IMG/VR virus record: IMGVR_UViG_3300032313_001465
Location: 64,001 to 128,000 of that record
DNA: 64,000 bases
Source of the DNA: a virus
Reading direction: 5' to 3' (one strand)
A program made the position numbers and the translations under genes. How positions within the stretch are numbered: position 1 is the stretch's first letter; each line of letters begins with the position of its first letter. Below, one piece after another: positions 42,077-59,361 of the stretch. The notes under the pieces were generated by a model. The model did not search any database. It was not told the DNA's origin and saw only the letters and a list, made by a program, of their open reading frames with translations.

Positions 42077-42086
42077 ACATAAAATA

Positions 42087-42632: not shown

Positions 42633-43007
42633 GTGATTAAGCTTATAGACATATTCAATCAACTTCTTCAAGAAGAAAAAGAAAAACGTGATAGATGTTT
42701 ACGTATTGCTGATCGCAAATACGATAAACCATCTGCTTATAAATCAGGAGCCGTTGTAAGGTGTCGTAAAGGAGAGATTTGGAAAGACTTAAAAGAAGAA
42801 GAATCACTCCATAAATGGTTTAAACGTTCTGGTCCTAAAGGTAAAGAAGGTGGATGGGTAGATTGCAACGCACCTGATGGTAGTGGAGGATATAAAGCAT
42901 GTGGTAGAAAAAAAGGTGAAAAACGTTCTAAATACCCATCTTGTCGTCCTACACCTGCACAATGTAAATCACCTGGAAAAGGTAAAAAATGGGGAAAAAC
43001 AAAATGA
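42633..43007 (+). CDS. Basic Cys-rich protein with MIKL leader
   Basis: PSAYKSGAVVRCRK, LHKWF, WVDC, CGR, YPSCRP. Confidence 0.7.
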   Translation: MIKLIDIFNQLLQEEKEKRDRCLRIADRKYDKPSAYKSGAVVRCRKGEIWKDLKEEESLHKWFKRSGPKGKEGGWVDCNAPDGSGGYKACGRKKGEKRSKYPSCRPTPAQCKSPGKGKKWGKTK

Positions 43008-43702
43008 TCAAACTATCAGATATCTTAAAAGAAATTATTGAGGGAACTTGTGGATATAATACAGATGTTAAAACAGGTAAAAAATTAGATACACCTGGTG
43101 GATTAAAAGAAGTAGATCCTAAAAAAGGAACAGGTAAAAAACCTAAGGGATCAGGTCGTCGTTTATACACAGATGAAAATCCAAAAGATACTGTATCTAT
43201 TAAATTCAAAACTAAAGAAGATATAGTTGATACATTAAATAAAGATTCATTTAAAGCTAAATCCCACGCTCGCCAATCCCAAATTATTAATTTAATACAC
43301 CAACGCGTTAGAGCTGCATATGGTAAAGCAAAAGATCCTGAAGTAAAATCTAGATTAAAACGCGCTCTAGACTATATTGAATCTCGTAAAGAATCATCTA
43401 AAAAGAAAACAGAACGTTTAAATAAGCTAAAAGAAACATCAGACCCACAATCAGGTAAAGCAGCACCTTATGGTTCAGGATATGCTCCTGTTAAAGAATT
43501 AGTAACAGATACAGAAGTTATCTGTGATAACTGTGGATGGGAATGGGATATTGAAGATGGAGGGGAAGATTTATATATTTGTCATAAATGTGGTCATGAT
43601 AATACTCCAGAACAATTAAATGAAAAATGTTGGAAAGGATATACTCAAAAAGGTATGAAAACAATGTTTGGTAAAAAATATCCAAATTGTGTAAAAAAAT
43701 AA
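43004..43702 (+). CDS. Multi-module basic protein with Zn-ribbon
   Basis: Leader MIKLSDILKE (ATG 43004); CDNC..CHKC; terminal CWKGY..PNCVK. Confidence 0.7.
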   Translation: MIKLSDILKEIIEGTCGYNTDVKTGKKLDTPGGLKEVDPKKGTGKKPKGSGRRLYTDENPKDTVSIKFKTKEDIVDTLNKDSFKAKSHARQSQIINLIHQRVRAAYGKAKDPEVKSRLKRALDYIESRKESSKKKTERLNKLKETSDPQSGKAAPYGSGYAPVKELVTDTEVICDNCGWEWDIEDGGEDLYICHKCGHDNTPEQLNEKCWKGYTQKGMKTMFGKKYPNCVKK

Positions 43703-43720
43703 CATATTTATAATTAAACA

Positions 43721-44038
43721 ATGGTAAAACTACTTCAATTACTAACTGAAGCTAAAGAAAGCTTTGAACAATTTGCTACAAATCGTTTAGCAGGTGCTGA
43801 AAAAATTATAGCTAATGCCAAAGAAAAGGGTGGTGATGCTTTATTAACATACACCCACTTTAAAATAAAACCATCTTACTATAAAAAAGCTATAGATGGG
43901 AAATTTGATAAAGAATCCGCTAAAAAAGAATTTGAGCAAACATACAAAAAAATATCATTAGATATGACTCAAACTGAATTTCAAAGAGAGGTTGGTCGTT
44001 TAGAAGTATTAGGTGAACTATTAATAAGAGAAAAATAA
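43721..44038 (+). CDS. Hypothetical protein with MVKLLQLLTE leader
   Basis: Shared leader; late-promoter motif upstream. Confidence 0.7.
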   Translation: MVKLLQLLTEAKESFEQFATNRLAGAEKIIANAKEKGGDALLTYTHFKIKPSYYKKAIDGKFDKESAKKEFEQTYKKISLDMTQTEFQREVGRLEVLGELLIREK

Positions 44039-44039
44039 T

Positions 44040-44459
44040 ATGATTAAATTAACAGATATATTAAACGAAGCAGAGATAAATAAATGTCCGTCTCCAACTC
44101 AAAGTATTGAGTTAAACCTTCAAAATAGACAGAAGGCAATTAATGAATATGGATATGGTCCCTTAAATCCTAATGAACCTAATGAAAAGTTTTGGCAAGC
44201 TAAAGCAGATATGTGGAAACTTGATTCTGTAAAAGAGGCTAAAACATCACGTTGTGGTAATTGTGCGGCATTTGATGTTACAGAAAAAACACTAAATTGT
44301 ATAGCTAAAGGAATAGGAAACGATGAAGGATCAGAAGATCCATTTGACGTAATTAAAGCAGGACAATTAGGATATTGTAGGTTTTTAAAATTCAAATGTG
44401 CTGCTGCTCGAACTTGCGATGCTTGGGTTGTTGGTGGTCCAATTAAAGATCCAATGTAA
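44040..44459 (+). CDS. Cys-rich protein (HiPIP-like Cys spacing?) with MIKLTDILNE leader
   Basis: CGNCAAF..GYC..KC..TCDAW. Confidence 0.6.
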   Translation: MIKLTDILNEAEINKCPSPTQSIELNLQNRQKAINEYGYGPLNPNEPNEKFWQAKADMWKLDSVKEAKTSRCGNCAAFDVTEKTLNCIAKGIGNDEGSEDPFDVIKAGQLGYCRFLKFKCAAARTCDAWVVGGPIKDPM

Positions 44460-44722
44460 TGAAACCATATACTGACGTTTTAACAACGGAAAATACAATT
44501 ATTAGGGAGTTTGGTGATAACATAGACCCCGTTGAATTAAAATGGCATATGGACTCTTCTTCCCGCCACGTTACCATTTTAGAGGGTAAAGGATGGAAAT
44601 ATCAAGAAGATAATAAATTACCTTTGGAACTTAACGAAGGGGATTGTATATTTATACCAAAACAAACATTTCACCGTATTTATAAAGGAACAACCCCATT
44701 AAAAATAAAAATTAAACAATGA
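44459..44722 (+). CDS. Cupin-domain protein
   Basis: WHMD, EGDCIFIPKQTFHRI. Confidence 0.75.
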   Translation: MKPYTDVLTTENTIIREFGDNIDPVELKWHMDSSSRHVTILEGKGWKYQEDNKLPLELNEGDCIFIPKQTFHRIYKGTTPLKIKIKQ

Positions 44723-45009
44723 AAAAACCAGAATTAAAGCAAATTATTAAAGAAGAAATACAAAAGATATTAAGTGAACAGCAAAAACGTATGCAAAAGC
44801 TTGCAGGTATTAACGAAGATAACACATTTAGTGACAATTACACAGTTAGTAATGAACAATATAAATTGATGGATAGTTATGTAAATCAACGTGCACTCCG
44901 TGATTTTCTAAATGCCGCTGAAAACATGATGGAAGATTTTCATGAAGCAGGATTTCCGGCAAGAGATGCATTTTATTGGTTTTATACTAAGCTAACTGCA
45001 AATATTTAG
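44719..45009 (+). CDS. Hypothetical protein with double leader (MKKPELKQIIKEEI + RMQKLAGI)
   Basis: Both motifs visible in the translation. Confidence 0.7.
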   Translation: MKKPELKQIIKEEIQKILSEQQKRMQKLAGINEDNTFSDNYTVSNEQYKLMDSYVNQRALRDFLNAAENMMEDFHEAGFPARDAFYWFYTKLTANI

Positions 45010-45044
45010 GTAGATTATATAACAGATAAAATAAGAAATGCATA

Positions 45045-45326
45045 ATGGCAAAATTAAACAAACAATTCCGACGTATGCAAAAGCTTGCAGGAATTCTTAA
45101 CGAAAACGAGGAAATAGATAATTTTATTGATGTATTAACAGATATGGCTATTAAAGCTAACATCATTAAAGACAAAGATATAAATAAAGACGAAGTAATA
45201 GATGCATTATATGATACATGGGAAGATATGGGATTTGATGATTATGAAGAAACAGGACAGGGGATTAGTACATCAGATTATAATAGATCTTTAGAAATAT
45301 TTACCAATTATATTAAAGATAAATAA
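45045..45326 (+). CDS. Acidic hypothetical protein with RMQKLAGILNE leader
   Basis: DNA ACGTATGCAAAAGCTTGCAGG shared with the previous gene. Confidence 0.7.
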   Translation: MAKLNKQFRRMQKLAGILNENEEIDNFIDVLTDMAIKANIIKDKDINKDEVIDALYDTWEDMGFDDYEETGQGISTSDYNRSLEIFTNYIKDK

Positions 45327-45337
45327 TAAAACATTTA

Positions 45338-45420
45338 AACCGATTTCATAGCCGGTTGCTCTAACAAGAGATAAAAATATGGAAGCTGTGGCTCCGATCG
45401 AAAGATTGGCGCCACTTTTA
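45338..45420 (+). ncRNA. Candidate structured RNA (pseudoknot + terminator hairpin)
   Basis: AACCG/CGGTT stem; its loop TTTCATA pairs with TATGGAA; inserted CTCT/AGAG hairpin; GAAA-capped terminal hairpin + TTTT. Confidence 0.5.
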
Positions 45421-45450
45421 CTTGGAAATTTAAACAAAATTTATTACATT
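45421..45450 (+). promoter_or_regulatory. Host sigma-A-type promoter
   Basis: CTTGG at 45421, TACATT at +24. Confidence 0.6.
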
Positions 45451-45476
45451 AAAATATAAGTTAAAATAAAGAAATA

Positions 45477-46820
45477 ATGAAAAGAGACAAAATTGTAATT
45501 GTAGGTGGAGGAGTTGCAGGTATTAGTGCTGCTACTAAACTTGTAGATAATGGTTATCCTGGAGAACTTATCACAATAATTGATATGGGTAAGGATCCAT
45601 ATAAAAGATTACCTGAAGAAGTAATGACAGGTTTCCTAGGTGCTGGAGGTTGGAGTGATGGTAAATTGACTTACCACACAGCAATTGGAGGTCAATTATC
45701 AAAATATACAGGCGAGGATAAAGCAATGGAATTAATGGATCAAGTGATTACCAATTTTAAACGTTTTCATCCTAAACCTGAAGAAGTACAATGTTCAAAT
45801 CCTGTTGAGGAACCTGAATTTATAAAACCATATTTTGGTTTACGATTGTTCCCTGTATGGCACGTTGGCACAGATTATCTATCTGAAATTGCTAAAAATT
45901 GGTACGATTATTTAGTAGAGAAAGGTGTACAATTTCACTGGGAAACTAAGGTAAATTATATTGATTTTAATGATAATTATGTTGTTGGAGAAGTTCAAGA
46001 AAAAAATATAGATTGGCATTATGATGAACTTATTTTTGCTGTAGGTAAATCAGGTATTGATTTTGCTCAAGAATTAGCTAATCAATATCAACTACCAGAC
46101 GAACCTAAATCAGTACAAATTGGTGTTCGATTTGAAGCACCACAACACCATTTCCAAAAACTAATCGATATTTCATATGATTTTAAACTTTATAGAAAAT
46201 TTGAAGATAAAGGCGTTTCGCTTCGCTCTTTTTGTACAAACAACAATGCTGCTTATGTTGCTGTAGAAGAAACATATGGAGACCATTCATATAATGGACA
46301 TGCTAAGAAAGACGAAGCATATAGAAACAATATGACTAACTTTGGTATTTTGATGGAAATTAAAGGTATTGAAGACCCATTTACTTGGTCACGTGAGGTA
46401 GTAAATAAATTACAATCAAACAACACAGGTTTATATTACAGCCCGTCTCGTACTCCTTCAATTACATCTGAAGGCAATAATGTAAGCGTAACTCAAATTA
46501 GTACTGAGGAATATTATGAGATGAAGAAAAATTTTGGAAAATATTTCAAATATGTTGAAGATTTTATAGTAGATATGAAAAAAGTATTCCCAACATTAGG
46601 TGATGATTGGGGTATTTATATTCCTGAGGTAAAATATTTATCACCTGAAGTAAAAGTAGATTACTCTAGTTTATCTCTAATAGATTACCCAAATGTACAC
46701 TTTGTTGGAGATGCTTTATCAGCTCGTGGTATAACAGTAGCAGGTTCTCAAGGTGTTTACGTAGCAGAACATATCCTTCAAAATACAGATTTCCCTGATT
46801 TTATAGAAAATTTTAATTAA
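45477..46820 (+). CDS. FAD-dependent oxidoreductase (COG2509-like)
   Basis: VGGGVAG, GAGGWSDGKL, IGVRFE, RSFC, FVGD..ARGI. Confidence 0.85.
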   Translation: MKRDKIVIVGGGVAGISAATKLVDNGYPGELITIIDMGKDPYKRLPEEVMTGFLGAGGWSDGKLTYHTAIGGQLSKYTGEDKAMELMDQVITNFKRFHPKPEEVQCSNPVEEPEFIKPYFGLRLFPVWHVGTDYLSEIAKNWYDYLVEKGVQFHWETKVNYIDFNDNYVVGEVQEKNIDWHYDELIFAVGKSGIDFAQELANQYQLPDEPKSVQIGVRFEAPQHHFQKLIDISYDFKLYRKFEDKGVSLRSFCTNNNAAYVAVEETYGDHSYNGHAKKDEAYRNNMTNFGILMEIKGIEDPFTWSREVVNKLQSNNTGLYYSPSRTPSITSEGNNVSVTQISTEEYYEMKKNFGKYFKYVEDFIVDMKKVFPTLGDDWGIYIPEVKYLSPEVKVDYSSLSLIDYPNVHFVGDALSARGITVAGSQGVYVAEHILQNTDFPDFIENFN

Positions 46821-46825
46821 AATAT

Positions 46826-47101
46826 ATGTCTAAAAAAGAAAAATACTTCGAAACCAAAACCATGAAGATAGGAGGAGCACTCCATCATTTCTTTAGAACT
46901 GAGGAATCACCAAATTGGAAATACCATAATTTCTCAGGTCCTGCTATTGAACCTGTAGAAAGTGGAAGTACATTTAAGAAATCATATTACTTATATGGTA
47001 TTCAATATACATCTGAACAATTTAAAGAAGCAGTTAGAGATAGAGAAGGTCTTCCATTCCACAAAACGGCAGCATTTAAACAAGGATCTAACAGAACTTA
47101 G
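46826..47101 (+). CDS. Hypothetical protein
   Basis: HNFSGPAIE..YYLYG. Confidence 0.65.
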   Translation: MSKKEKYFETKTMKIGGALHHFFRTEESPNWKYHNFSGPAIEPVESGSTFKKSYYLYGIQYTSEQFKEAVRDREGLPFHKTAAFKQGSNRT

Positions 47102-47130
47102 TTGGGAGTATAAATAAAATTTATTATCTT
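47101..47130 (+). promoter_or_regulatory. Host sigma-A-type promoter
   Basis: GTTGG at 47101, TATCTT at +24. Confidence 0.55.
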
Positions 47131-47145
47131 ATAAAAAAATAAGTT

Positions 47146-47676
47146 ATGAAAATAGGATTTGTAGGAAGCATCAGTGTTGGGAAAACCACTTTAGTAAATG
47201 AATTAGCTAAATTAGAGCAATTTAAAGAATATTATATAGCAACTGAACGTTCTAAATATTTGAGAGATTTAGGCATTCCATTAAATACAGACTCTACTTT
47301 ATTAGGTCAAACTATATTCTTATCAGAACGTTGTTCTGAATTATTAAGGGATAAGGTATTAACAGATAGAAGTATAATTGATGTAATGGCATTTACTTCT
47401 TTATCTAAATCAATGTCAAGAATAGAAATATTATCATTTTGTGATTATGCATCAAATTTTATATCTTTATACGATCATATATTTTATGTGTCTCCGGAAG
47501 GTGTAAAGTTAGAGGACAATGGAGTGAGAGCGGTTGATGCAGAATATAGAGATCAAATTGATGAAGAAATTAAATATTTATTAGGAATTTACAAATCTAA
47601 AATTAAAAACTTTCACGTAATATCAGGTACTGTTGAAGAACGTATAAAACAAGTTAAACAAGCACTTTCTTTATAA
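47146..47676 (+). CDS. AAA_28 (NadR/Ttd14-like) P-loop kinase
   Basis: GSISVGKTTL, TDRSIID, EDNGVR, SGTVEERI. Confidence 0.8.
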   Translation: MKIGFVGSISVGKTTLVNELAKLEQFKEYYIATERSKYLRDLGIPLNTDSTLLGQTIFLSERCSELLRDKVLTDRSIIDVMAFTSLSKSMSRIEILSFCDYASNFISLYDHIFYVSPEGVKLEDNGVRAVDAEYRDQIDEEIKYLLGIYKSKIKNFHVISGTVEERIKQVKQALSL

Positions 47677-47697
47677 TATTTATCATAAAAACATATA

Positions 47698-48597
47698 ATG
47701 AAGAAATCTGATCTTAAAAAACATATTAAAGAAGAAATACTTTCGATCCTAAAAGAAGCATCAACAGCATTAGTAACTACTAAAGGAGGAACAAAACCTG
47801 TATCATTCTCATCCCCTTCAGAATTAAGCGCTCTTAAAACGGATGCTAACGTATCATCAATCACAACAACAGCAGGGCAAAAGATTAAAGAAACTAAAAA
47901 AGAAATGAAAGAAGATAAATTCGATGATAAAATAACAAATCTTGAAAAATATACTTATACTGTAAATGGGAAAAAAGTAACTCCGGAAATTGGTTATTTT
48001 GATCATTCATTAAAAGCTATGATATCCACTCCAAGAAGTGGTGATGAGTATTTTGATTATGAATTTTATAGAATTGGCGAACCTGATGAAAGTGGTAATA
48101 TTGAATTATCTCCTGAAAAAGGTAAAAAAGGAATGTATACTGAAGAAATGGATACTTCAGGATTTAAATCTGGTAGAGAATTTATTAATATAAAATTACA
48201 AAAATATCCTAAAGCTGTAGCTAAAATTAATCAATTAATTAATATGATTGGTGAAGATAAATTCACAATGGAAATGGCTAAATGGTTGTTTGATTTCTTT
48301 AATAATGCTTCATACGAAAGTCCAGTTAACGAAGCAAAAATTGAATCTGATTTTTTTGAACGAGAACCTAAATCTAAAGATATTGAGAAAGGAGAAGGCA
48401 TAATAGCTAAAACTACAAAGCTTTTAAAATTTCAAAAAGAATTAAAAACATTATCTAAAGATATGCAAGATTTAGCTGCTGAATATAGAGAAGCTGAAGG
48501 ATCTGATAAAGATGAAATTTTACGAACATTAAAAGTTAAAACTGCTGCTAAAAAGGAATTAGAGAAAAAAATAGAACAACTTGAAAGATATGTATAG
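47698..48597 (+). CDS. Multi-module protein with MKKSDLKKHIKEEI leader
   Basis: Leader plus LKE/IKE/MKE/VNE sites. Confidence 0.7.
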   Translation: MKKSDLKKHIKEEILSILKEASTALVTTKGGTKPVSFSSPSELSALKTDANVSSITTTAGQKIKETKKEMKEDKFDDKITNLEKYTYTVNGKKVTPEIGYFDHSLKAMISTPRSGDEYFDYEFYRIGEPDESGNIELSPEKGKKGMYTEEMDTSGFKSGREFINIKLQKYPKAVAKINQLINMIGEDKFTMEMAKWLFDFFNNASYESPVNEAKIESDFFEREPKSKDIEKGEGIIAKTTKLLKFQKELKTLSKDMQDLAAEYREAEGSDKDEILRTLKVKTAAKKELEKKIEQLERYV

Positions 48598-49252
48598 TAT
48601 AGTATTAGGTGTATTAAAAAATATTTTAGTATTTCTAAAAAAATTAGATTTTAAATCTTTATTAATCATAGCACTAATCTTAATAATTTTATTTATTAAA
48701 GGATGTGGAGGTAATCACCCACCAACACCTACAAAAATTATTAAAATTGATGGAAAAAAATATAGCGTACTTAAACATACTATTGATACTACATATATTC
48801 CAAAAAATACAGTTATATATCGTAAAGGTAAAGACATTGTTATTGAAAAAGAAATCCCAATCTATATTCCTCTAAACATAGATACTTCAGCAATAATTAA
48901 AGATTATTATACAAGTAGATTATATAAAGATACACTTACATTAGATTCATTGTCGTTTGTTGTTATTAATGATACTATAGCAAAAAATAGAATAGAATCG
49001 AGAAAATTCACTTCACATATAGTATATCCTATTATTAAGGAAACTACAATAGTAAAAGAATTACCAAAAAATCAATTCTTCTTAGGCGCAACTCTTGGAT
49101 TTGATAAAACAAACATAGTAAATTTCGCAGGTCCTTCATTTATATTTAAAAGTAAAAAAGATTATTTATACTCTTTTGGAATAGGTTATAGTAATGCTAA
49201 AACCGTTAGTATACAGGGAGGAATGCTTTTTAAAATTAAATTAAAGAAATAA
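48590..49252 (+). CDS. Membrane protein, candidate spanin
   Basis: TM followed by KGC; C-terminal alternating beta strands. Confidence 0.5.
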   Translation: MYSIVLGVLKNILVFLKKLDFKSLLIIALILIILFIKGCGGNHPPTPTKIIKIDGKKYSVLKHTIDTTYIPKNTVIYRKGKDIVIEKEIPIYIPLNIDTSAIIKDYYTSRLYKDTLTLDSLSFVVINDTIAKNRIESRKFTSHIVYPIIKETTIVKELPKNQFFLGATLGFDKTNIVNFAGPSFIFKSKKDYLYSFGIGYSNAKTVSIQGGMLFKIKLKK

Positions 49253-49255
49253 GTT

Positions 49256-50836
49256 TTGGAATCTCAAATAAAAGACATAATGAGACAGGAATATATAAAA
49301 TGTCTCCAAGATCCTGCCCATTTCATGAAAAAATATTGTTACATTAGTCATCCTCAAAGAGGAAGAATTATGTTTCACTTATATCCATTTCAAGAAAAGG
49401 TATTAGGTTTATTTCAAAAAAATCCATACTCCATAATACTTAAATCTCGTCAGTTAGGTATATCTACATTAGCTGGTGGGTATGCTTTATGGTTAATGTT
49501 ATTCCATAAAGACAAGAATATTTTATGTATTGCAACTAAACAGGATACAGCTAAAAATATGGTTACTAAGGTAAAATTTATGTACGATAATTTACCTTCA
49601 TGGTTAAAAGAAAAAGGTAAACCCTTAGAAGACAATAAACTAACTCTCAAACTAAATAACGGCTCTCAAATTAAAGCAACGTCTGCCTCGAGTGATGCAG
49701 GTAGATCAGAAGCTGTGTCCTTACTATTAGTAGATGAGGCCGCTTTTATTGAGAATATAGGAGAGATTTGGGCATCCGCTCAACAAACATTAGCAACAGG
49801 AGGAGGAGCAATTGTTCTTAGTACTCCATATGGAACTGGAAACTGGTTCCATCAAACTTGGGTTAAAGCAGAATCATCTGAAAATGATTTCTTACCTATC
49901 AGACTTCCATGGTATGTTCATCCTGAAAGAGATCAAACATGGAGAGATAAACAAAATGACTTATTAGGAGATCCAAGATTAGCAGCCCAAGAGTGTGATT
50001 GCGACTTTTCAAATTCAGGAGATACTGTATTACATCCTGAATATATAAAATACTATGAAGAAACTTATATTAAGGAACCGTTGGAGAGGCGAGGAGTTGA
50101 TCGTAACTTATGGGTATGGGAATCTCCAGATTATACTCGTCAGTATTTATTAGTAGCGGATGTAGCTCGAGGTGATGGAAAAGATTTCTCAGCATTTCAC
50201 GTTATTGATGTAGAAACTAATACACAAGTAGCTGAATATAAAGGGCAAATTGGAACTAGAGAGTTTGGGTATTTATTAGTGGGAGTAGCTACTGAATATA
50301 ATAATGCTTTATTAGTAGTAGAAAATGCAAATATAGGATGGAGTACATTACAAACCATTCAAGAAAGAAACTATGCTAATCTATATTATTCTCCAAAAAA
50401 TGGAGAAATTACCGCAGATTCGTATTTTGATCAATTTATGGATTCAAGTAAAACAGTAGCTGGATTTACAATGTCTTTAAGAACAAGACCTATGGTAATA
50501 GGTAAATTCCAAGAATATGTTGGTGATAGATCAGTAGTTATTCAATCTAAAAGATTATTAGAAGAAATGAAAGTATTTGTTTGGAAAAATGGTAGAGCTG
50601 AAGCTCAACAAGGATATAATGATGATTTAATTACATCATTTTCTATTGCTATGTTTTTAAGAGATACAGCATTTAAGTTTAAACAACAAGGTCTAGATTT
50701 AACTAGAACCGCATTAAATAATTTTTCAACCGGAAAAAGTCAATACCAAGGAGCATATTTCGCAAGAGGAACAGATAACCCATATTCTATGAATATAAAG
50801 GGCCAAAGCGAAGATTTAACATGGTTAACAAGATAA
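49256..50836 (+). CDS. gp17: Terminase large subunit (T4 gp17-like)
   Basis: LYPFQ, KSRQLGIST, LLVDEAAF, STPYG, ADVARGDGKD, NDD. Confidence 0.95.
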   Translation: MESQIKDIMRQEYIKCLQDPAHFMKKYCYISHPQRGRIMFHLYPFQEKVLGLFQKNPYSIILKSRQLGISTLAGGYALWLMLFHKDKNILCIATKQDTAKNMVTKVKFMYDNLPSWLKEKGKPLEDNKLTLKLNNGSQIKATSASSDAGRSEAVSLLLVDEAAFIENIGEIWASAQQTLATGGGAIVLSTPYGTGNWFHQTWVKAESSENDFLPIRLPWYVHPERDQTWRDKQNDLLGDPRLAAQECDCDFSNSGDTVLHPEYIKYYEETYIKEPLERRGVDRNLWVWESPDYTRQYLLVADVARGDGKDFSAFHVIDVETNTQVAEYKGQIGTREFGYLLVGVATEYNNALLVVENANIGWSTLQTIQERNYANLYYSPKNGEITADSYFDQFMDSSKTVAGFTMSLRTRPMVIGKFQEYVGDRSVVIQSKRLLEEMKVFVWKNGRAEAQQGYNDDLITSFSIAMFLRDTAFKFKQQGLDLTRTALNNFSTGKSQYQGAYFARGTDNPYSMNIKGQSEDLTWLTR

Positions 50837-50847
50837 AATAAACAAAA

Positions 50848-52749
50848 ATGGCAGATAAAAGTGTATTTACAAGACTAAAAAGGTTATTTTCTACGGATGT
50901 AATCATCAGAAACCAAGGTGGGAATAACATTCGTGTAATAGATGTTAATCACATCCAAACTACTGGAGAAATTGAAACTAATTCACTTCAAGATAGATTT
51001 AATCGAATATATAGTAGCACAAACCCATCATCTTTATATGGAGCTCAATTTAATCTTAACTATCAATATTTAAGAACACAAATGTATTCTGAATATGATG
51101 TTATGGATACTGATGCTATTATAGCCTCTGCTCTAGATATTATTGCAGATGAAAGCACATTAAAAAATGAACAAGGAGAAGTATTACAAATTGTAAGTAG
51201 TGATGAAGATGTTCAAAAAATATTATATAACTTATTTTATGATGTATTAAATATAGAATTTAATATGTGGTCATGGGTAAGACAAATGTGTAAATATGGT
51301 GACTTTTTCTTAAAATTAGAGATAGCTGATAAATTTGGAGTATATAATGTTATCCCATATACTGCATATCATATTGAAAGACAAGAAGGATACGATAAAG
51401 CAAATCCTGCTTCTATAAGATATGCATTTTCACCTGATGGTTTTGCTGGGGGTAGTTATGGTTACTATAACTTACCAAATCAACCTACTAATTCAAATCG
51501 AATTTATTTTGATAACTATGAGATGGCTCATTTCAGACTAATCTCAGATGTAAATTATTTACCTTACGGAAGAGCATATATTGAACCAGCGCGTAAATTA
51601 TATAAACAATACTCTTTAATGGAAGATAGCATGCTTATCCATAGAATAGTTAGAGCGCCGGAAAAACGTGTATTTTATATTAATATTGGAGGCATTCCAC
51701 CTAATGAAGTAGAAGCATTTATGCAAAAAACAATTTCTGCTATGAAACGTACTCCATATATTGATCCTGAAACTGGAGAATATAATTTGAAGTATAATAT
51801 GCAGAATATGATGGAAGATTTCTATATTCCAGTTCGTGGGAATGATGCAACTACTAAAATTGATACTACAAAAGGTTTAGAGTATGATGGTATTAAGGAT
51901 GTTGAGTATTTAAGAGATAAAATGTTTGCTGCCTTAAAAGTTCCAAAAGCTTTTATGGGTTATGAGAAAGATTTAACTGGAAAAGCTACATTAGCAGCCG
52001 AAGATATTAGATTTGCTCGTACAATTGATAGAATACAGAGAATAATATTATCTGAACTTGAAAAAATTGCTTTAATCCATTTATATACACAAGGATATGA
52101 TGGTGAACAGTTAACTAATTTTAAATTATCTCTTACTACTCCTTCAATTATATACGATCAAGAACGTTTAGCTCTTTTAAAAGAAAAAGTAGATTTAGCT
52201 GTAACTATTTTCGAAAACGATGTTTTACCATCTGATTGGGTTTACACTAACGTATTCCATTTAAGTGAAAGTGAATTTGGTGAAATGAGAGATCTAAATG
52301 TGGAAGACGCAAAACGTAGATTTAGACTAAAACAAATATCAGAAGAAGGAAATGATCCATTAGAAACAGGTAAATCATATGGTACACCTCATGATTTAGC
52401 AACACTATATGGCACAGGAAGATATGATAATACAGCTGATGTTCCTGCTGGATATAATGAAAAAGCTACTTTAGGTCGTCCTGTAGAAAAAAGTTCAAAT
52501 ATAAATACTCAAGGCAATGCTTTTGGTAGAGATAGATTGGGGGTTGCTGCTATGAAAAAAGATGATCAACCATCATTTGGTAAAACCAATTATAAAGGAG
52601 GTTCACCTCTAGCATTAGAAGGAACCAAAAAATCTTATTTTCAAAATAGAAAATTATTAGAGAATATGAAAGTAGAACGCAAAGTAATGATTTTTGAATC
52701 AGACAAAAACAAAGAGTCATTACTAGATGATTCTCAGTTACTACCTTAA
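50848..52749 (+). CDS. gp20: Portal protein (T4 gp20-like)
   Basis: MEDSMLIHRIVRAPEKRVFYI, EDFYIPVRG, ALKVP, EDIRFAR. Confidence 0.93.
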   Translation: MADKSVFTRLKRLFSTDVIIRNQGGNNIRVIDVNHIQTTGEIETNSLQDRFNRIYSSTNPSSLYGAQFNLNYQYLRTQMYSEYDVMDTDAIIASALDIIADESTLKNEQGEVLQIVSSDEDVQKILYNLFYDVLNIEFNMWSWVRQMCKYGDFFLKLEIADKFGVYNVIPYTAYHIERQEGYDKANPASIRYAFSPDGFAGGSYGYYNLPNQPTNSNRIYFDNYEMAHFRLISDVNYLPYGRAYIEPARKLYKQYSLMEDSMLIHRIVRAPEKRVFYINIGGIPPNEVEAFMQKTISAMKRTPYIDPETGEYNLKYNMQNMMEDFYIPVRGNDATTKIDTTKGLEYDGIKDVEYLRDKMFAALKVPKAFMGYEKDLTGKATLAAEDIRFARTIDRIQRIILSELEKIALIHLYTQGYDGEQLTNFKLSLTTPSIIYDQERLALLKEKVDLAVTIFENDVLPSDWVYTNVFHLSESEFGEMRDLNVEDAKRRFRLKQISEEGNDPLETGKSYGTPHDLATLYGTGRYDNTADVPAGYNEKATLGRPVEKSSNINTQGNAFGRDRLGVAAMKKDDQPSFGKTNYKGGSPLALEGTKKSYFQNRKLLENMKVERKVMIFESDKNKESLLDDSQLLP

Positions 52750-52776
52750 TATTTATATATATTTATAAAAAACACA

Positions 52777-53628
52777 TTGATGAAACATAATAGGACAAAA
52801 AATACAGGTATACTATTTGAATTATTAACAAGACAGATTACTTCAGATATTCTATCAGGTAAAGATTCACCTGCATCAAAAATAATCAAATCTCATTTTG
52901 TTAATACTGAATTAGGGAAAGAATACAAGTTATATGAGTCTATTTTTAAAAATAACTTTGTTAGCGAAGCTAAAGCTAATATGGTTATAAACACGGTATT
53001 AGAATCTTCTAAAAAGTTAAATCGTACAACTTTAAGAAAACAAAAATACAATTTAATTAAGGAAATAAAAGACCACTATAACTTAGACGAATTTTTTAAA
53101 ACTAAAGTTTCAAACTACAAAGAATTAGCATCTATATATGTTTTATTTGAAGTACATAGTGATCCAACATATTCAAATCCACAAATTACTATAAATAATA
53201 AAACTACTCTTTTAGAATATTTAACAAAACCCAAAAGGGAAAAAGAACACACCCAAACCATTATTGAGGAGTTTCAAACATACGACAAAGATTTACGTAT
53301 TTTAACTTACAAGATTTTACTTGATAAATTTAATACAAAACATGCTCATTTAAATGAGAACCAAAAATTAGTACTCAAAGAATTTATCAACTCAATAGAT
53401 TCAGCTCCAAAATTGATGAGATTTTATAATGATAAGATAAACGAAATCAAATCTGAAATAAAAACTCAAATCAACAAAACAGAAGATGCTGTTGTTAAAA
53501 TTAAATTAAAGGAAGTAAGTAAACTACTAACTGAAGTTGATAAGAATCAAAAAGTTAAAACAAATAATTTAGTTGACTTACTTCAATATTTTGAACTTTT
53601 AGAAGAATTAAAACATACTAATGGATAA
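52777..53628 (+). CDS. Hypothetical head-assembly protein
   Basis: Between portal and protease; KNTGILFELL. Confidence 0.65.
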   Translation: MMKHNRTKNTGILFELLTRQITSDILSGKDSPASKIIKSHFVNTELGKEYKLYESIFKNNFVSEAKANMVINTVLESSKKLNRTTLRKQKYNLIKEIKDHYNLDEFFKTKVSNYKELASIYVLFEVHSDPTYSNPQITINNKTTLLEYLTKPKREKEHTQTIIEEFQTYDKDLRILTYKILLDKFNTKHAHLNENQKLVLKEFINSIDSAPKLMRFYNDKINEIKSEIKTQINKTEDAVVKIKLKEVSKLLTEVDKNQKVKTNNLVDLLQYFELLEELKHTNG

Positions 53629-54034
53629 TTTAAAAGGGAAAATTAAAAAGATATGTCAAGAATATCTTAAAAAACTAAAAGAAGAATCTACAACAGGTGG
53701 TGGAACAGCTAGTAGTGCCGGAATGACTACAGGTACTGGAGAACAATATGCTACACCATTTGCCTTTAATCCAAATAAAAAAGCTAAAGGTACAGCCAGT
53801 AATTACTACTATAAGTTAGGATATAAATTGGCACCTAACCAAGTAACTGAAATAGATAAATCTACATATGGAACCGGAAATTTAGGACCGGGTCCAAAAG
53901 CAACTGAACGTGGAGTAGAAGATAATTATTATGTAAAGGCGTTTGGTTACAAAGTAGTTGATCGTAAAAAACAAGCAGACGCTTCTAAAGCTGTAGATTA
54001 TAAAGATTTATGGGGAAAAACATATAAATATTAA
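53621..54034 (+). CDS. Hypothetical head-region protein
   Basis: LKEES site; YATPFAF. Confidence 0.65.
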   Translation: MDNLKGKIKKICQEYLKKLKEESTTGGGTASSAGMTTGTGEQYATPFAFNPNKKAKGTASNYYYKLGYKLAPNQVTEIDKSTYGTGNLGPGPKATERGVEDNYYVKAFGYKVVDRKKQADASKAVDYKDLWGKTYKY

Positions 54035-54035
54035 T

Positions 54036-54275
54036 ATGTATAGATATAAATTAAAAGAAGAAACACCACAAACTCCTAAACAATATCAACAAACCCGCTT
54101 AAACGGATTTGATGAAGTTATAGATTTAATAGGACAAATACAACCTCTTTTAAAAGAAGCTAGACAAAAAACGATAGAATATTATAATGATAATCCTGAG
54201 TCGTATGATGTAGTATATGGTACTGATTTAATAAAAGATTACTTATTAGATATAACAAAAATATTAAAAAAATAA
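54036..54275 (+). CDS. Hypothetical head-region protein
   Basis: ORF; LKEE near N-terminus. Confidence 0.65.
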   Translation: MYRYKLKEETPQTPKQYQQTRLNGFDEVIDLIGQIQPLLKEARQKTIEYYNDNPESYDVVYGTDLIKDYLLDITKILKK

Positions 54276-54282
54276 AACAAAC

Positions 54283-54561
54283 ATGGTAAATATCCCAGTA
54301 AATTTAGGAGGAACATTTTTAACAGCCAGTCAATCAGCCACTGGAGCATTCTCAGGAATGATATGTTTAGGAACAGGATCAGCAACAGCAATAACAGGTT
54401 CAATTATTTCAGGTATTAAATATGGATATGCGTTTGCTAACAACAAAGTTTCAGAAGCTGTAGGGGTACCATTTACAATGGCTCCAGGAACTACATTTCC
54501 TATGGTTATAACTTCTTGTAGTTTAGCAGCAGGTAGCGCTCCAGTATTTTTATATTCATAA
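54283..54561 (+). CDS. Small G/S/T/A-rich protein (possible head decoration)
   Basis: Composition like the outer structural proteins. Confidence 0.55.
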   Translation: MVNIPVNLGGTFLTASQSATGAFSGMICLGTGSATAITGSIISGIKYGYAFANNKVSEAVGVPFTMAPGTTFPMVITSCSLAAGSAPVFLYS

Positions 54562-54574
54562 TTTTAAATAAACA

Positions 54575-55786
54575 ATGAAAACATTACAAACACAATATAA
54601 TCTTATTAAAGAAGGAAAAGGAAGTAAACATGTATTTTTAAAGGAAGCAAAAAGCTTATATCCTGACATGATTACTAATTTTTCAACTTTTGAACAAACT
54701 GAAAAAATTCTTAAAAATAGAGGAGTAATTAACGAAAATTTTGTTGGATTACAACCTATTAACGATTGGGAACCATCTCCAAAACAAGACTATGAAATAG
54801 CATTTAAAAAATTCTTATCTGAAGTAGAAGAAGAAAAAGTTAAAGCTGATACTAAAAAAGTGTCTAAATATGTAGAAGATACTGATGCTCATAGTTTTGA
54901 TAATAAAGATCGTAAAAATATTGATAATTTAAGTGGTCAAGAAGTACTTAATGGGTTTTATACCGAATTAAAAGCGCCTAAAAACGCAGATAAAACGAAA
55001 GACGAATTAATGGATATCGTTACTAAAAATCTATCAAAAGATCCGTTATACTACATTAAAAACGGCCAATTTGGAACTGAAGGAGTGGGATATACTGAAG
55101 ACGCTCCAGGTTTAGGTAAGCCTAAAGAAGCAAAAGGTAAATATAAATCAAGTGGATATGGCGATTTAGATAATAAACAAACAGCTCCAAAATCAAACGT
55201 TAAGGATTCAGGAAAAAGTGAATACAAAACTGGTATGCCTAAGAAAGTAAAAGAAATGGATATGAAAGCTCAATCTTCTAAAGGTGTACAAAAAATGGCT
55301 ACTCCTGGTAAACCAAAAACTATAAAACTAAATGAAATAGGAATGTTTCATGATCCTATGGGATATAATAAAGGAGCAAAATCTCAAAAGGAAGTAGCTC
55401 GTGATATATTAATGAATGCTGGATTGTCTGATGAAGAAATAAAAAAGTTCATTAGTGATAATATGTTTAAAAAAGGAAGATTAGATGATTTAGCTAAAGA
55501 ATATATTAAATCCCTTAAAGGACTAAATGAAAATCAAGAATCAAATACAGATGTATTAAAAGATTTAATATCAAGACATGATTGGTACTTTGAAATGAGT
55601 GATGATAATAGAAAATATAAAGATGGTCAAGCATCTGAAAAGAAAATTATGGATTTAGTAAATAGAATGGGAGATGAAGGCAAAAAAATCTATAATTCAA
55701 TGGCACCAAAAGATAGACAATTAAAAGAATCCGTAGTTGATAGAATAATAGAATCTATTCTTGAAAGACTTAAGAAAATTAAATAA
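54575..55786 (+). CDS. Putative prohead core/internal protein
   Basis: Multiple IKE/INE/LSE/LNE/LKE sites; directly upstream of the protease. Confidence 0.6.
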   Translation: MKTLQTQYNLIKEGKGSKHVFLKEAKSLYPDMITNFSTFEQTEKILKNRGVINENFVGLQPINDWEPSPKQDYEIAFKKFLSEVEEEKVKADTKKVSKYVEDTDAHSFDNKDRKNIDNLSGQEVLNGFYTELKAPKNADKTKDELMDIVTKNLSKDPLYYIKNGQFGTEGVGYTEDAPGLGKPKEAKGKYKSSGYGDLDNKQTAPKSNVKDSGKSEYKTGMPKKVKEMDMKAQSSKGVQKMATPGKPKTIKLNEIGMFHDPMGYNKGAKSQKEVARDILMNAGLSDEEIKKFISDNMFKKGRLDDLAKEYIKSLKGLNENQESNTDVLKDLISRHDWYFEMSDDNRKYKDGQASEKKIMDLVNRMGDEGKKIYNSMAPKDRQLKESVVDRIIESILERLKKIK

Positions 55787-55787
55787 A

Positions 55788-56408
55788 ATGAGTAAACAAC
55801 TTCTAATAGAAACTAGACCATTCCAAGTTAATCCAATGCAACTTGTTGAAGGAACCAAAGGATCTTCAGGAAATCCATTAGTAGAAGGTATTTTAGCTAC
55901 AGTAGAAGTAAAAAATGGAAATGGAAGATACTACAAGAGAGAGTTATGGGAAAGGGAATTAGAAACATACATGCAAAGTATTAAAGAAAATCGTGCAACT
56001 GGAGAATTAGATCACCCCAGCACTGAAGTTATTAACTTAAAAAATGTATCTCATGCTATCAAAGATATTTGGTGGGATGGGGACAACATAATGGGTAAAA
56101 TCGAAATTCTACCTACCCCATCAGGTAATATCCTAAAAGCACTTATAGAAAGCAATATCTCAGTAGGAGTATCTTCAAGAGGAATGGGTACTTTAAAACA
56201 AGAAGGCGATTTAATGGAAGTACAAGATGATTTTACATTAACATGTTGGGATTTTGTATCTACTCCTTCTAATCCAGGTAGCTGGATGCATCCAATAAAT
56301 GGAATGATGAACGAAGGTTTACAATCAATTAAAACAAATAAGTATTCTAAAGTAAATTCTATTCTTTTTGAAATATTATGCGCTCACGGCACTTGCCCAA
56401 TAATTTAA
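55788..56408 (+). CDS. gp21: Prohead protease (T4 gp21-like)
   Basis: KNGNGRYY, GELDHP, TPSGNI, GVSSRGMG, DFVSTPS; ATG at 55788. Confidence 0.93.
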   Translation: MSKQLLIETRPFQVNPMQLVEGTKGSSGNPLVEGILATVEVKNGNGRYYKRELWERELETYMQSIKENRATGELDHPSTEVINLKNVSHAIKDIWWDGDNIMGKIEILPTPSGNILKALIESNISVGVSSRGMGTLKQEGDLMEVQDDFTLTCWDFVSTPSNPGSWMHPINGMMNEGLQSIKTNKYSKVNSILFEILCAHGTCPII

Positions 56409-56438
56409 AATCTATCATAAAATAATATTTTAGAACTG

Positions 56439-56470
56439 ATGTCTCCCCTAAAAAGGAGACATTTTTTTTT
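56439..56470 (+). terminator. Intrinsic terminator
   Basis: ATGTCTCC..GGAGACAT + T run. Confidence 0.8.
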
Positions 56471-56609
56471 CTTCAAAACGCGACTTTGACAAAAATGCGA
56501 CATACGTATAGCTATAATGTACTATTCTCATTCTACTATATAGTACCAAACAATCATAACCCCAATTACAATTACTAATAATTGTATTTCCAAAACAAAT
56601 TTAAGGAAA

Positions 56610-57677
56610 ATGTCAACAAACAGAGATTTATTAAAAGAAGCGATCGCTGACGCTAAAGCAGTAAAAGATACAGCAATTGCAAACGCAAAAATGGCTCTTG
56701 AAGAAGCATTTACTCCACATTTAAAATCTATGTTCTCCGCTAAAATCAACGAGATGGAAGAGGAAGATATGGATGAAGATATGGATTACAATGACGAAAA
56801 CATAGAGCAAAACGAAGCCAAAAAAAGAGGTGGAAAAAATGAAAAGGTTGTTAAAGAATTCTATTTAGAAGAAGACGAAATCAATCTAGAAGAACTTATG
56901 TCTGAATTAGAAAAAGATGAAATGGAAGAAGTAATTAATGATCCTAGAGGTCCTAGAGCTCACGGTAATATAGCTTCTGGAGGAATGTCAGATGATGCTT
57001 TAATGGAAGCCGAAGAAGAAACTGAGGAAGAAATGAGTATTGAAGACATGTCTGAAGAAGATTTAAAAGATTTCATTGAAAGTGTAATTAAAGACATGGT
57101 TGAAGCTGGAGAAATTGAAGCTGGTTCTGAAGAAGAAGAAGAAGAAGAAGAAGAAGGTGAAAGTATTGATGAGTTCTTAAACGAAATGGAAGGTGATGAC
57201 CTTAAAGAATATGGTCAAGAACAACCTATATCAGTTGAAGACGCTTTATCAATTGTATGTAAATCATATCCAAACAATGCATTATGTAAAGGAATGAAAG
57301 AAGGCAAAGGTGCAAAAGAAAAATCAAACAAAGAATTAGAAGAAGCATACAGAGTTATTAGATCAATGAAAAAAGACATTAACGAAGTTAACTTACTAAA
57401 CGCAAAATTACTTTACACCAATAAAATCTTCAGAGGTAAGAGCTTAACTGAATCTCAAAAGATTAATGTATTAGGTGCTTTTGACAGAGCAACAACCGCT
57501 AAAGAAGCTAAACTGGTATATGAATCATTGTTGAGTAATTTAAAAACACCAACAAGAAACATTCAAGAAAATTTAGGTAGAGCTTCCAAGTCAGTAACTG
57601 TTCCTCAAACAAAACAACCTATTATTGAATCAAATGATATGGTAGCAAGGTTCCAAAAATTAGCAGGTATTATTTAA
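56610..57677 (+). CDS. Prohead scaffold/core protein (gp22-like)
   Basis: Highly acidic coiled coil between protease and capsid genes; ends RFQKLAGII. Confidence 0.8.
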   Translation: MSTNRDLLKEAIADAKAVKDTAIANAKMALEEAFTPHLKSMFSAKINEMEEEDMDEDMDYNDENIEQNEAKKRGGKNEKVVKEFYLEEDEINLEELMSELEKDEMEEVINDPRGPRAHGNIASGGMSDDALMEAEEETEEEMSIEDMSEEDLKDFIESVIKDMVEAGEIEAGSEEEEEEEEEGESIDEFLNEMEGDDLKEYGQEQPISVEDALSIVCKSYPNNALCKGMKEGKGAKEKSNKELEEAYRVIRSMKKDINEVNLLNAKLLYTNKIFRGKSLTESQKINVLGAFDRATTAKEAKLVYESLLSNLKTPTRNIQENLGRASKSVTVPQTKQPIIESNDMVARFQKLAGII

Positions 57678-57717
57678 AATTAACAAACAAACAAACAAAA
57701 ACAAAACAACAGAAAAA

Positions 57718-59361
57718 ATGGCAAACATTCAAAACTTACTCGAATCAGCTAACCCGTATAAATCACTACAAGGTGATGCGGCTAGATTAGCAAACAAATG
57801 GAGTAGAACAGGATTGTTAGAAGGTATCAAAAATGAAACCGAGAAAAACAATATGTCTATGATCCTTGAAAACCAAGCAAAACAATTGGTAATTGAAGCC
57901 TCTCAAACAGGAGGTGGTACTTCTTCAACAGCTACTTTTACAGCAGGTGTTGGTGAACAATGGGCAGGTGTAGCTCTTCCGTTAGTTCGTAAGATCTTCG
58001 GTCAAATTGCATCAAAAGAATTCGTTAGTGTTCAACCAATGAACTTACCTTCAGGTCTAGTGTTTTTCTTAGATTTCCAATATGGTACATCTAAAAATCC
58101 ATTTACAGCAGGTAAATCAATGTATGGTGATACTGGTTCTAACTTTGGTAATACAAACACTGGTGGTCTATATGGTGCTGGTAGATTTGGTTACTCAGTT
58201 AACAACACTTCATCTATTCAGGCAGCAACAACTGGTTCAGCTACTTGGTCTACTTTTGATCTAGATAGTGATTATTCAGCTTCAGCAGCCGCTGGTTCTT
58301 GGAAAACATTAACTGTAACTTTATCATCTACAACTGATTTCTTAGCAGCTAGATCATTTACTCTTACTTCTGCTTCTAACATCGCAGTAACAGATAACTT
58401 ACCTGCATTTACTACTTTTAATACAGCAAATAACACTGTAACTTTCGTTATTACTGGTTCAAAAATAACTGATGCTTTTGCTCCAGCTGGTTCATTACCA
58501 AACGTTACTTGTTCATATTCATTACAACCAACTGATAAATACAGAGGTGATTTTGAAGATGCTAACACTGCTTTGAACGCAAACAACAGTTCAATTACAA
58601 TTCCTCAAATCAACGTTCAAATGAGATCTGAAGCAATTGTTGCTAAAACAAGAAAATTAAAAGCAGCATGGACTCCGGAATTCGCTCAAGATTTAAATGC
58701 CTACCATGCATTAGATGCTGAAGCTGAATTAACTAGCATTATGAGTGAATACATCAGTTTAGAAATTGACTTAGAAATTTTGGATATGTTGATCGAAACA
58801 GCAGCCGCAGGTACTGAATATTGGTCAGCAGTAAATAACCAAAGTTTAAGTGTAAGTGGTACTACTGTAACTAACAACCCATCTTTAGGTTTCTTTAACA
58901 CACAAGGACAATGGTTCCAAACTTTAGGAACTAAAATCCAAAAATTATCAAACGCAATTCACCAAAGAACATTAAGAGGTGGTGCAAACTTCATCGTTTG
59001 TTCTCCAACAGTAGCAACTATCTTGGAATCAATCCCAGGTTTTGCAAGTACTTCTGATGGTGAAGCTTCAAAAATGACTTATGCATTTGGTGTACAAAAA
59101 ATGGGTCAATTGAATGGTAGATATCAAGTATACAAAAATCCATACATGACAGAAAACACTATATTGATGGGTTACAGAGGTCAACAATTCTTGGAAACAG
59201 GTGCAGTTTTTGCTCCATATATTCCATTGATCATGACTCCGTTAGTGTACGATCCAAACACATTTACTCCTAACAAAGGTCTATTAACTAGATATGCAAA
59301 GAAAATGGTAAGACCTGAGTTTTATGCAAAGATCTTCGTTTCAGGTTTAAATACTCTATAG
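57718..59361 (+). CDS. gp23: Major capsid protein (T4 gp23-like)
   Basis: VQPMNLPSGLVF, AKTRKLKAAWT.E.AQDL..H..DAEAEL, APYIPL, TRY. Confidence 0.96.
   Translation: MANIQNLLESANPYKSLQGDAARLANKWSRTGLLEGIKNETEKNNMSMILENQAKQLVIEASQTGGGTSSTATFTAGVGEQWAGVALPLVRKIFGQIASKEFVSVQPMNLPSGLVFFLDFQYGTSKNPFTAGKSMYGDTGSNFGNTNTGGLYGAGRFGYSVNNTSSIQAATTGSATWSTFDLDSDYSASAAAGSWKTLTVTLSSTTDFLAARSFTLTSASNIAVTDNLPAFTTFNTANNTVTFVITGSKITDAFAPAGSLPNVTCSYSLQPTDKYRGDFEDANTALNANNSSITIPQINVQMRSEAIVAKTRKLKAAWTPEFAQDLNAYHALDAEAELTSIMSEYISLEIDLEILDMLIETAAAGTEYWSAVNNQSLSVSGTTVTNNPSLGFFNTQGQWFQTLGTKIQKLSNAIHQRTLRGGANFIVCSPTVATILESIPGFASTSDGEASKMTYAFGVQKMGQLNGRYQVYKNPYMTENTILMGYRGQQFLETGAVFAPYIPLIMTPLVYDPNTFTPNKGLLTRYAKKMVRPEFYAKIFVSGLNTL

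Follow-up and report, generated by a model that had tools for sequence, protein, structure and literature searches.

A scaffold C-terminal peptide is reused as a tag with flanking predicted cleavage sites on small proteins of uncultured T4-like phages

In a 64-kb window (positions 64,001 to 128,000) of the 148,581-bp virus record IMGVR_UViG_3300032313_001465, which has a G+C content of approximately 30%, the head scaffold protein of a T4-type phage ends in a short peptide whose core, RMQKLAGI or a close variant, is also carried by proteins that are not scaffolds. The same reuse is widespread in uncultured T4-like phages, where the copy usually forms part of a conserved 22-residue leader with two predicted sites for a T4 gp21-type prohead protease, MKKQILSE↓EFRRMQKLAGIITE↓ (arrows indicate predicted cuts). 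Selection acts on the peptide rather than on its DNA, the proteins behind the tag are unrelated to each other, and tags occur together with the scaffold motif and T4-type head genes. On balance, we favor the explanation that RMQKLAGI is a prohead-addressing peptide common to scaffold and cargo, which would be excised by the protease.

The scaffold terminal peptide and its copies in this genome

The scaffold gene (56610..57677, + strand, 355 aa) belongs to a T4-type head module on the + strand in the 49-60 kb region of the window. Its place corresponds to that of gp22, with the protease on one side and the major capsid protein (MCP) on the other, the order being Peptidase_S77 protease, acidic 355-aa open reading frame (ORF) and Gp23-family MCP, all directly adjoining. 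The protein has a net charge of -43 and 14 [IL]xE sites, i.e., 3.9 per 100 aa vs 1.4 genome-wide. Its profile matches that of T4 gp22 weakly (hhalign probability 34%, E 4e-4, 51 columns around LTESQK, with the C-terminus outside the alignment). Considering its gene-22 position, charge, [IL]xE density and this weak profile link, we accepted the ORF as the scaffold. As had been proposed in the initial annotation, it ends in the motif (..QPIIESNDMVARFQKLAGII at the stop codon). The terminal part reads ..QPIIE-SNDMVARFQKLAGII, in which a predicted gp21-type cleavage site, IIE (57621..57629, + strand), lies just upstream of the C-terminal peptide SNDMVARFQKLAGII (57630..57674, + strand; motif RFQKLAGII at 57648-57674). 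The protease gene (55761..56408, + strand) encodes a prohead maturation protease of the T4 gp21 type (Pfam Peptidase_S77, E 3.8e-29; PHROG 207, head maturation protease, E 1.8e-58), which is probably the enzyme that cuts the (I/L)xE sites beside the motif. The gp23-type MCP gene follows at 57718..59361 (+ strand; Pfam Gp23, E 2.6e-78).

A six-frame translation of the window contains QKLAGI exactly three times, once in the scaffold and once in each of two small ORFs, and the whole genome contains it five times. The first tagged protein (44719..45009, + strand, 96 aa) has the class-B leader MKKPELKQIIKEEIQKILSE, then QQKRMQKLAGINE, and then a 63-aa acidic body starting DNTF..; RMQKLAGI and the following NE, which give the predicted cleavage site INE, are encoded at 44788..44817 (+ strand). 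The second (45045..45326, + strand, 93 aa) starts with the tag MAKLNKQFRRMQKLAGILNE, followed by NEE.. and a 73-aa body with a net charge of -13, and its RMQKLAGI with the predicted cleavage site LNE lies at 45072..45104 (+ strand). An in-frame stop is found just upstream of each start codon, and the two ORFs share an exact 21-mer, ACGTATGCAAAAGCTTGCAGG. Thus, the layout of both ORFs and the 21 identical nucleotides described initially are confirmed. ORF 45045 belongs to no Pfam or PHROG family and gave nothing above noise level in the protein atlas, and a megablast search of positions 44000-58000 against phage records revealed no near relative.

Two further tagged ORFs lie outside the window, at genome positions 147109-147507 and 148074-148412 (L225:3109-3507 and 4074-4412). 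Both start MKKQILSEQFRRMQKLAGIINE, and they have 76 identical nucleotides at their start, including the upstream A-rich spacer. The two proteins also have the same poly-Asp tail (..DDDDDDY) and unrelated middles, and such a combination of constant head and tail fits cassette exchange.

Homologues of ORF 44719 keep its body and have shorter leaders, with MKKPILSE-, MAKLNE- or MLNE- before QQKRMQKLAGINE, and its composite leader is also found on an unrelated body (P0156). Thus, ORF 44719 carries the usual tag, whose MKKP and ILSE are separated by an added class-B segment. At least 11 more ORFs have two other classes of cleavable leader, MIKLxD(I/L)LxE and MKK(S/P)ELxQ(I/L)IKEE(I/V)xx(I/V)(L/V)xE, at window positions 41660-44459 and 47698-48597 and at genome positions 95316-98148 and 146358-148042. 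In its first half, MKKQILSE, the tag resembles a reduced class-B leader (MKK(S/P)ELxQ..).

Distribution of the motif in viral contigs and cultured relatives

The IMG/VR database was scanned with a degenerate DNA pattern for RMQKLAGI, which matched at least 120 stretches, compared to an estimated ten or so chance matches; 121 matches were analyzed among the matches listed. All of these 121 are in frame and 120 are at a protein end, with a bimodal distribution of positions: 94 are at most 4 residues from the stop of a 220-600-aa ORF, 26 lie at most about 20 residues from the start codon, and the remaining match is internal.

A wider scan of the retrieved loci, in which a C-terminal case was considered as a scaffold homologue if it aligned over at least 80 residues to the C-domain of the present scaffold, assigned 88 of 99 C-terminal cases to scaffold homologues. 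A gp23-like capsid gene is located directly downstream in 52 of the retrieved motif-bearing loci. In addition, six non-scaffold proteins have the motif at their C-terminus, and approximately 11 truly internal motifs separate modules of larger proteins, always in the form xNE-(E/A)F-x-RMQKLAGI-IxE; one protein has two tandem internal copies. The original claim of reuse is thus real, but its scope, an N-terminal tag on small proteins, was too narrow, as the feature is far wider and includes internal positions and the C-termini of non-scaffold proteins.

Scaffold ends were also collected independently of the pattern. With a profile built from the C-terminal 125 residues of the scaffold, 4172 clusters (E ≤1e-3) were detected among 1.84 billion representative proteins, and the scaffold end in the best 150 of these 4172 clusters reads R-[MFWL]-[QKR]-x-[LIF]-A-[GNA]-[IL]. 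In these best 150 profile-found scaffolds, R, L and A are near-invariant and the K position is free (Q, I, R, V, F); an alignment of 44 scaffolds shows no variation at R, Q, K, L, A, G and I. The closest cultured relatives are Flavobacterium phage immuto and Microcystis phage Mel-JY01, both of which share the scaffold end (..ISE-VSEQVSRWQKLAGIIK in immuto and ..LNE-SNNVVERMKKLAGIVK in Mel-JY01). Immuto also has a tagged protein, gp083, which starts MKKQILSEQFRRMQKLAGIITE. Tags are also carried by five large virus records with a length of 128-172 kb and a completeness of 78-100%; in all five, the scaffold was matched by the profile through its C-terminal end, and the motif itself could be read directly from the sequence in four of the five.

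Diverged versions of the scaffold end are present in the uncultured jumbo phage LR756508 (..SRMQKLADIS) and in p142 of Rhodothermus phage RM378 (..ERIKRLAGL), although for p142 only the last 8 residues aligned in the profile comparison, with an E value of 0.07. A loose likeness to R-x-x-K-x-x-G-L was noticed at several other C-termini (L123, L223, L224, L220), namely those of T4 gp68 (..KRRKALGLS), Vibrio D527 gp68 (..MKKRKQMGL) and Stenotrophomonas Moby gp68 (..MRFRKAQGLK), as well as RM378 p142; T4 gp68 did not match the scaffold C-terminal profile. Among the papers searched, none contains the string QKLAGI.

Architecture of the tag and its flanking cleavage sites

Viral contigs were further scanned with EEFxRMQKLAGI and, in a third scan, with MKKQILSEEF alone. 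A total of 113 distinct N-terminal tag contexts were obtained, 104 of which are distinct full-length tagged proteins. All 29 distinct ORFs that start with MKKQILSEEF go on with x[RK]M[QK]xLAG, and the tag consensus is M-K-K-Q-I-L-S-E↓E-F-x-R-M-Q-K-L-A-G-I-I-(T/N)-E↓.

The protease gp21 of T4 has the specificity (L/I)xE. Sites of this type bracket the motif on both sides: [ILVMQ]xE with its E 3-6 residues past the G is present in 109 of 113 distinct N-terminal tags, and [ILVM]xE just upstream of the motif in 102 of 113, compared to a background rate of 1.8% per position in the cargo bodies. Upstream sites are equally a property of the scaffold end, where, among 77 distinct C-terminal cases, 70 show [ILVM]xE in the 12 residues that precede the motif; the site is typically 6 residues before the R, and exactly 6 in 69 of the 94 C-terminal matches listed in the first scan. 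The proposal that tagged proteins are released at the (I/L)NE following the motif is thereby supported as far as predicted gp21-type sites are concerned, whereas the cleavage itself is something that these sites suggest.

Tag and scaffold end are alike over approximately 20 residues: both have the cut site in front of the motif, then a hydrophobic residue at -3, and then R, M/F/W, Q, L, A, G and I. The lysine varies in tags as well as in scaffolds, and tags vary at the same places as scaffolds do (RMNQLAG, RMQLLAG and KMKKLAG). Since the same positions are conserved, the claim that non-scaffold proteins copy the scaffold C-terminal peptide is strongly supported. At the nucleotide level, the 121 matches listed comprise 72 distinct 24-mers, which use both R codon families and five to six Leu codons. 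Such free variation of synonymous codons indicates selection on the peptide, and it also implies that the identical DNA within the present genome reflects recent cassette duplication and is not the cause of the conservation. A purely DNA-level recombination leader was rejected on the basis of the same synonymous variation.

Three homologues of the cargo encoded by genome ORF 148074 (P0162-P0164) have a variant tag, MKEIIRMNQLAGIITE, and behind it comes another conserved and cleavable linker, (A/Q)(R/K)KM(I/M)xILNE. One of these, P0164, is a two-module polyprotein joined by this linker.

The proteins behind the tag

The 104 tagged proteins fall into 61 unrelated blastp clusters. When 63 tagged proteins (61 cluster representatives and the two window ORFs) were compared with Pfam and PHROG, only one borderline hit was obtained against each database. 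Tagged bodies (loci L008-L212) have a median length of 111 aa and a median net charge of -11, and 52% of them are at or below -10, compared to a median of -1 and 12% for the small ORFs of this genome. The density of [IL]xE is 1.0 per 100 aa in tagged bodies vs 3.9 in the scaffold, a scarcity in keeping with proteins that should outlast the protease. Recombination between leaders and bodies is evident, in that one body may have several leader versions and one leader may be found on unrelated bodies; for example, the body of genome ORF 148074 was found with the variant tag MKEIIRMNQLAGIITE and within a two-module polyprotein. One possible reading of the acidic cargo bodies is that they are DNA-mimic-like effectors.

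Predicted structure of the terminal peptide and its candidate partner

An AlphaFold2 model of the aligned last 125 scaffold residues (mean predicted local distance difference test score, pLDDT, of 80) has three confident helices, followed by a tether (residues 94-109) with pLDDT below 50, a terminal helix (DMVARFQKLA, residues 113-122 of 125) and a non-helical GII. The motif is therefore predicted to be a short amphipathic helix plus hook on a flexible tether. On this modeled helix, the conserved positions -3, 0, +3, +4 and +7 would form one hydrophobic face, with the variable K facing away.

Among the possible partners of such a peptide, the capsid protein is the most likely for three reasons. 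Scaffold C-termini in solved systems bind coat; the N-terminal region of T4 gp23 is thought to face and contact the gp22 core (PMC9546572); and the propeptide of the present MCP is about as conserved as its core fold. This predicted propeptide comprises MCP residues 1-60 (57718-57897) and ends ..QLVIE, and its mean column conservation is 0.72, vs 0.76-0.78 in the core fold and 0.46 in the insertion domain. A complex prediction for the MCP (alignment A2) with the last 70 scaffold residues (alignment A1), run without controls, gave a score of 0.00, which speaks neither in favor of binding nor against it. When the scaffold C-terminal profile was compared with PDB sequences, only a chance-level match to APC16 was found (E 0.46) and no homology to a solved scaffold peptide. 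By analogy with the helix and hook of 80alpha and CpmB and with P22, phi29 and herpesviruses, the peptide may bind the capsid protein. With regard to the initial idea that the motif provides a concrete mechanism for the hypothesis that small proteins are cargo of the head, peptide copying and flanking sites are supported, whereas capsid binding and encapsidation are suggested by analogy only.

Comparison with known systems

Several systems resemble the one described here in part. The T4 capsid targeting sequence (CTS) of the internal proteins IPII and IPIII (Mullaney & Black 1996, cited in PMC9958956) is likewise a short leader at the N-terminus of small, non-essential proteins, in a phage whose head genes are of the gp20/gp21/gp23 type; it also ends in a (L/I)xE site of the prohead protease and is portable to unrelated proteins. 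In contrast, the tag of the present phages is approximately twice as long, has two cleavage sites and is also found at internal and C-terminal positions; moreover, its bodies are acidic, not basic, and their loading is a prediction. How proteins reach the T4 core "remains mysterious", and how the core holds the shell is also unresolved (PMC9958956).

The T4 scaffold itself is similar to the present one with respect to its gene position between gp21 and gp23, its acidic and helical character, its richness in (L/I)xE sites, and the weak profile match around ..LTESQK.., but its C-terminus (..VYAKVASRF) is only loosely similar. The leader of T4 internal proteins, MKTYQEFIAE, bears no obvious resemblance to MKKQILSEEFRRMQKLAGIITE. 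To our knowledge, copying of the scaffold C-terminal peptide has not been described for the CTS, and we know of no T4 tag that copies the C-terminus of gp22.

A close parallel for the peptide is found in phage 80alpha, whose last 16 scaffold residues form an 11-residue amphipathic helix and a hook with RIIK that binds the capsid N-arm (PMC5644958; PDB 6B0X, 6B23). The CpmB protein of SaPI1 carries this 80alpha scaffold peptide and competes for the same site (PMC5644958). The predicted helix DMVARFQKLA followed by GII(K), and the presence of the same peptide in a second, unrelated protein, are in line with this arrangement. However, there is no detectable sequence homology to the 80alpha peptide, and capsid binding in the present phages is proposed by analogy. 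The copy also occurs on dozens of families, mostly at the N-terminus and between protease sites, and its purpose would be loading rather than size redirection.

Other likenesses are more general. In P22 gp8, phi29 gp7 and herpesvirus pre-VP22a, the scaffold C-terminus is the coat-binding anchor to the shell. Foreign proteins fused to the C-terminus of gp8 are reportedly loaded into P22 procapsids in artificial nanocage work; the fusions considered here differ from such P22 virus-like particle cargo fusions in being natural, predicted to be removed by a protease, and part of a T4-type system whose scaffold is degraded and not recycled. Encapsulin cargo-loading peptides are likewise short conserved terminal peptides that, via a flexible linker, bring diverse cargo inside an HK97-fold shell, but they have another consensus, no protease release and a DNA-free compartment, whereas the present peptide is common to cargo and scaffold. 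Overall, the tag appears to work like the T4 CTS and the 80alpha scaffold/CpmB mimicry, and what seems new is a two-site leader that copies the scaffold end and is found on dozens of families.

Proposed mechanism and alternative explanations

According to the explanation that we favor, RMQKLAGI would be the core of a prohead-addressing peptide of roughly 15 residues. This peptide would fold as a short amphipathic helix with a hydrophobic face of F/V(-3), M/F/W(0), L(+3), A(+4) and I(+7), preceded by the invariant R and followed by a G-I-I(-K) hook. In the scaffold, where it is placed at the extreme C-terminus on a disordered tether, it may anchor the acidic scaffold core to another component of the prohead, for which the best candidate is the gp23-like capsid protein, at its inner face or N-terminal region. 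The same peptide would be reused as a portable tag, usually N-terminal and sometimes located between polyprotein modules or at the C-terminus of non-scaffold proteins, and tagged proteins would thereby co-assemble into the prohead and become encapsidated, as the known loading systems suggest. Once activated, the gp21-type protease would cut the (I/L)xE sites on either side of the peptide, which should free scaffold fragments and cargo bodies from the shell and leave a small basic peptide able to escape.

A number of points weigh against this explanation. The internal proteins of T4 are basic, and the cargo of the present phages is acidic, which is awkward beside packed DNA. The peptide in the tags does not have a free C-terminus, unlike in the scaffold. 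In Mel-JY01, no tagged genes were found and KLAGI is present only in the scaffold, suggesting that the scaffold use of the motif is primary and that tagging is optional. No covariation between tag and scaffold was seen within genomes: the tags stay RMQKLAG and the scaffolds have RF, RW or RWQI, so that a common partner gains no support from covariation. Finally, virion or prohead proteomics for this phage, immuto or Mel-JY01 was not found in the literature, where no paper on Mel-JY01 was identified and the papers naming immuto have no title or abstract pointing to such data.

It is also conceivable, albeit unlikely, that the peptide is an addressing signal with a different partner, in which case its docking site would be the scaffold, with which tagged proteins would polymerize as pseudo-scaffold subunits, or else a different component of the core or portal. 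CTS-bearing proteins of T4 are placed in the scaffolding core and not on the shell (PMC9958956), the three confident helices modeled in the scaffold C-domain could form a receptor, and the tagged bodies are acidic, as the scaffold is. However, the C-terminal peptide touches the coat in every solved scaffold system (80alpha, PMC5644958; P22, phi29 and herpes simplex virus as a matter of general knowledge), the MCP propeptide is unusually conserved, and loading via the portal would be limited to 12 copies. A less probable explanation is that the peptide serves the gp21-type protease, as a docking or exosite element or a product-like ligand that recruits the enzyme to the core or presents (I/L)xE bonds. 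Although the motif adjoins predicted cleavage sites on one or both sides in all contexts, and the scaffold end corresponds approximately to the cut point of the tag (..AGII at the scaffold terminus vs ..AGIIxE↓), the motif is absent from the other predicted substrates (the MCP propeptide, class A and B leaders, and 13 other scaffold sites). In addition, an invariant terminal helix on a tether, present throughout the scaffolds, is what one would rather expect of a structural anchor, and the T4 figures of approximately 55 protease vs approximately 580 scaffold copies (PMC9546572) would be a poor ratio for docking.

Lower still is the probability that the tagged acidic proteins are regulators or decoys that compete for the site of the scaffold peptide and tune prohead assembly, e.g., its size, timing or core composition. 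This idea has a precedent in SaPI1 CpmB, which copies the 80alpha scaffold C-terminal peptide and competes for its coat site (PMC5644958), and the tags vary less than the scaffold motif does, as would be expected of strong competitors. On the other hand, the 61 unrelated body families, the tandem cassette arrays and the polyproteins argue for payload diversity over one regulatory role, the tagged genes belong to the phage itself, and a cleavable design would release the body. Least probable of all, and very doubtful, is that recombination of cassettes, involving common leader and ribosome-site DNA, left the shared stretch behind with no function of the peptide. The 76 identical nucleotides between two tagged genes, A-rich spacer included, and the 21 between the window pair are what such recombination would leave, but amino acids are fixed across phages while their codons vary, thousands of clusters have the motif as the conserved terminus of an essential scaffold protein, and the flanking cleavage sites are conserved as well.

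A more far-reaching reading is less likely than not, and we would not yet rely on it: T4-type phages might address proteins to the prohead by scaffold mimicry, a natural, position-independent and protease-removable tag loading dozens of unrelated small acidic proteins (possibly DNA-mimic or anti-defence effectors) for delivery with the DNA. Such a strategy would be used by a very large clade of aquatic phages, and the same logic may explain the T4 CTS. A concrete short peptide that is conserved at the scaffold end in thousands of clusters and portable in nature turns the question of T4 core localization into simple experiments. The motif also marks many small acidic phage proteins that could not otherwise be annotated as candidate virion-delivered effectors, and, should it work as proposed, it would be a ready-made natural loading tag for the engineering of T4-like capsids.

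Other features of the head region

Further genes of the T4-type head module are the large terminase (49256-50836, + strand) and the Portal_T4 portal (50848-52749, + strand; Pfam Portal_T4, E 7.3e-65). Between portal and protease, a 137-aa ORF (53621-54034, + strand) aligns through its residues 5-44 with MCP residues 43-83 (46% identity, E 2e-7), and the aligned stretch runs across the site of predicted maturation cleavage (VIE↓ASQTGGGT..) into the beginning of the mature N-arm. The ORF is a second example of a small protein that copies part of a head protein. Directly 3′ of the capsid gene, a 499-aa ORF (59470-60969, + strand) has N-terminal Cys/His-rich repeats and lies where T4 has the homing endonuclease gene segD, after gene 23.

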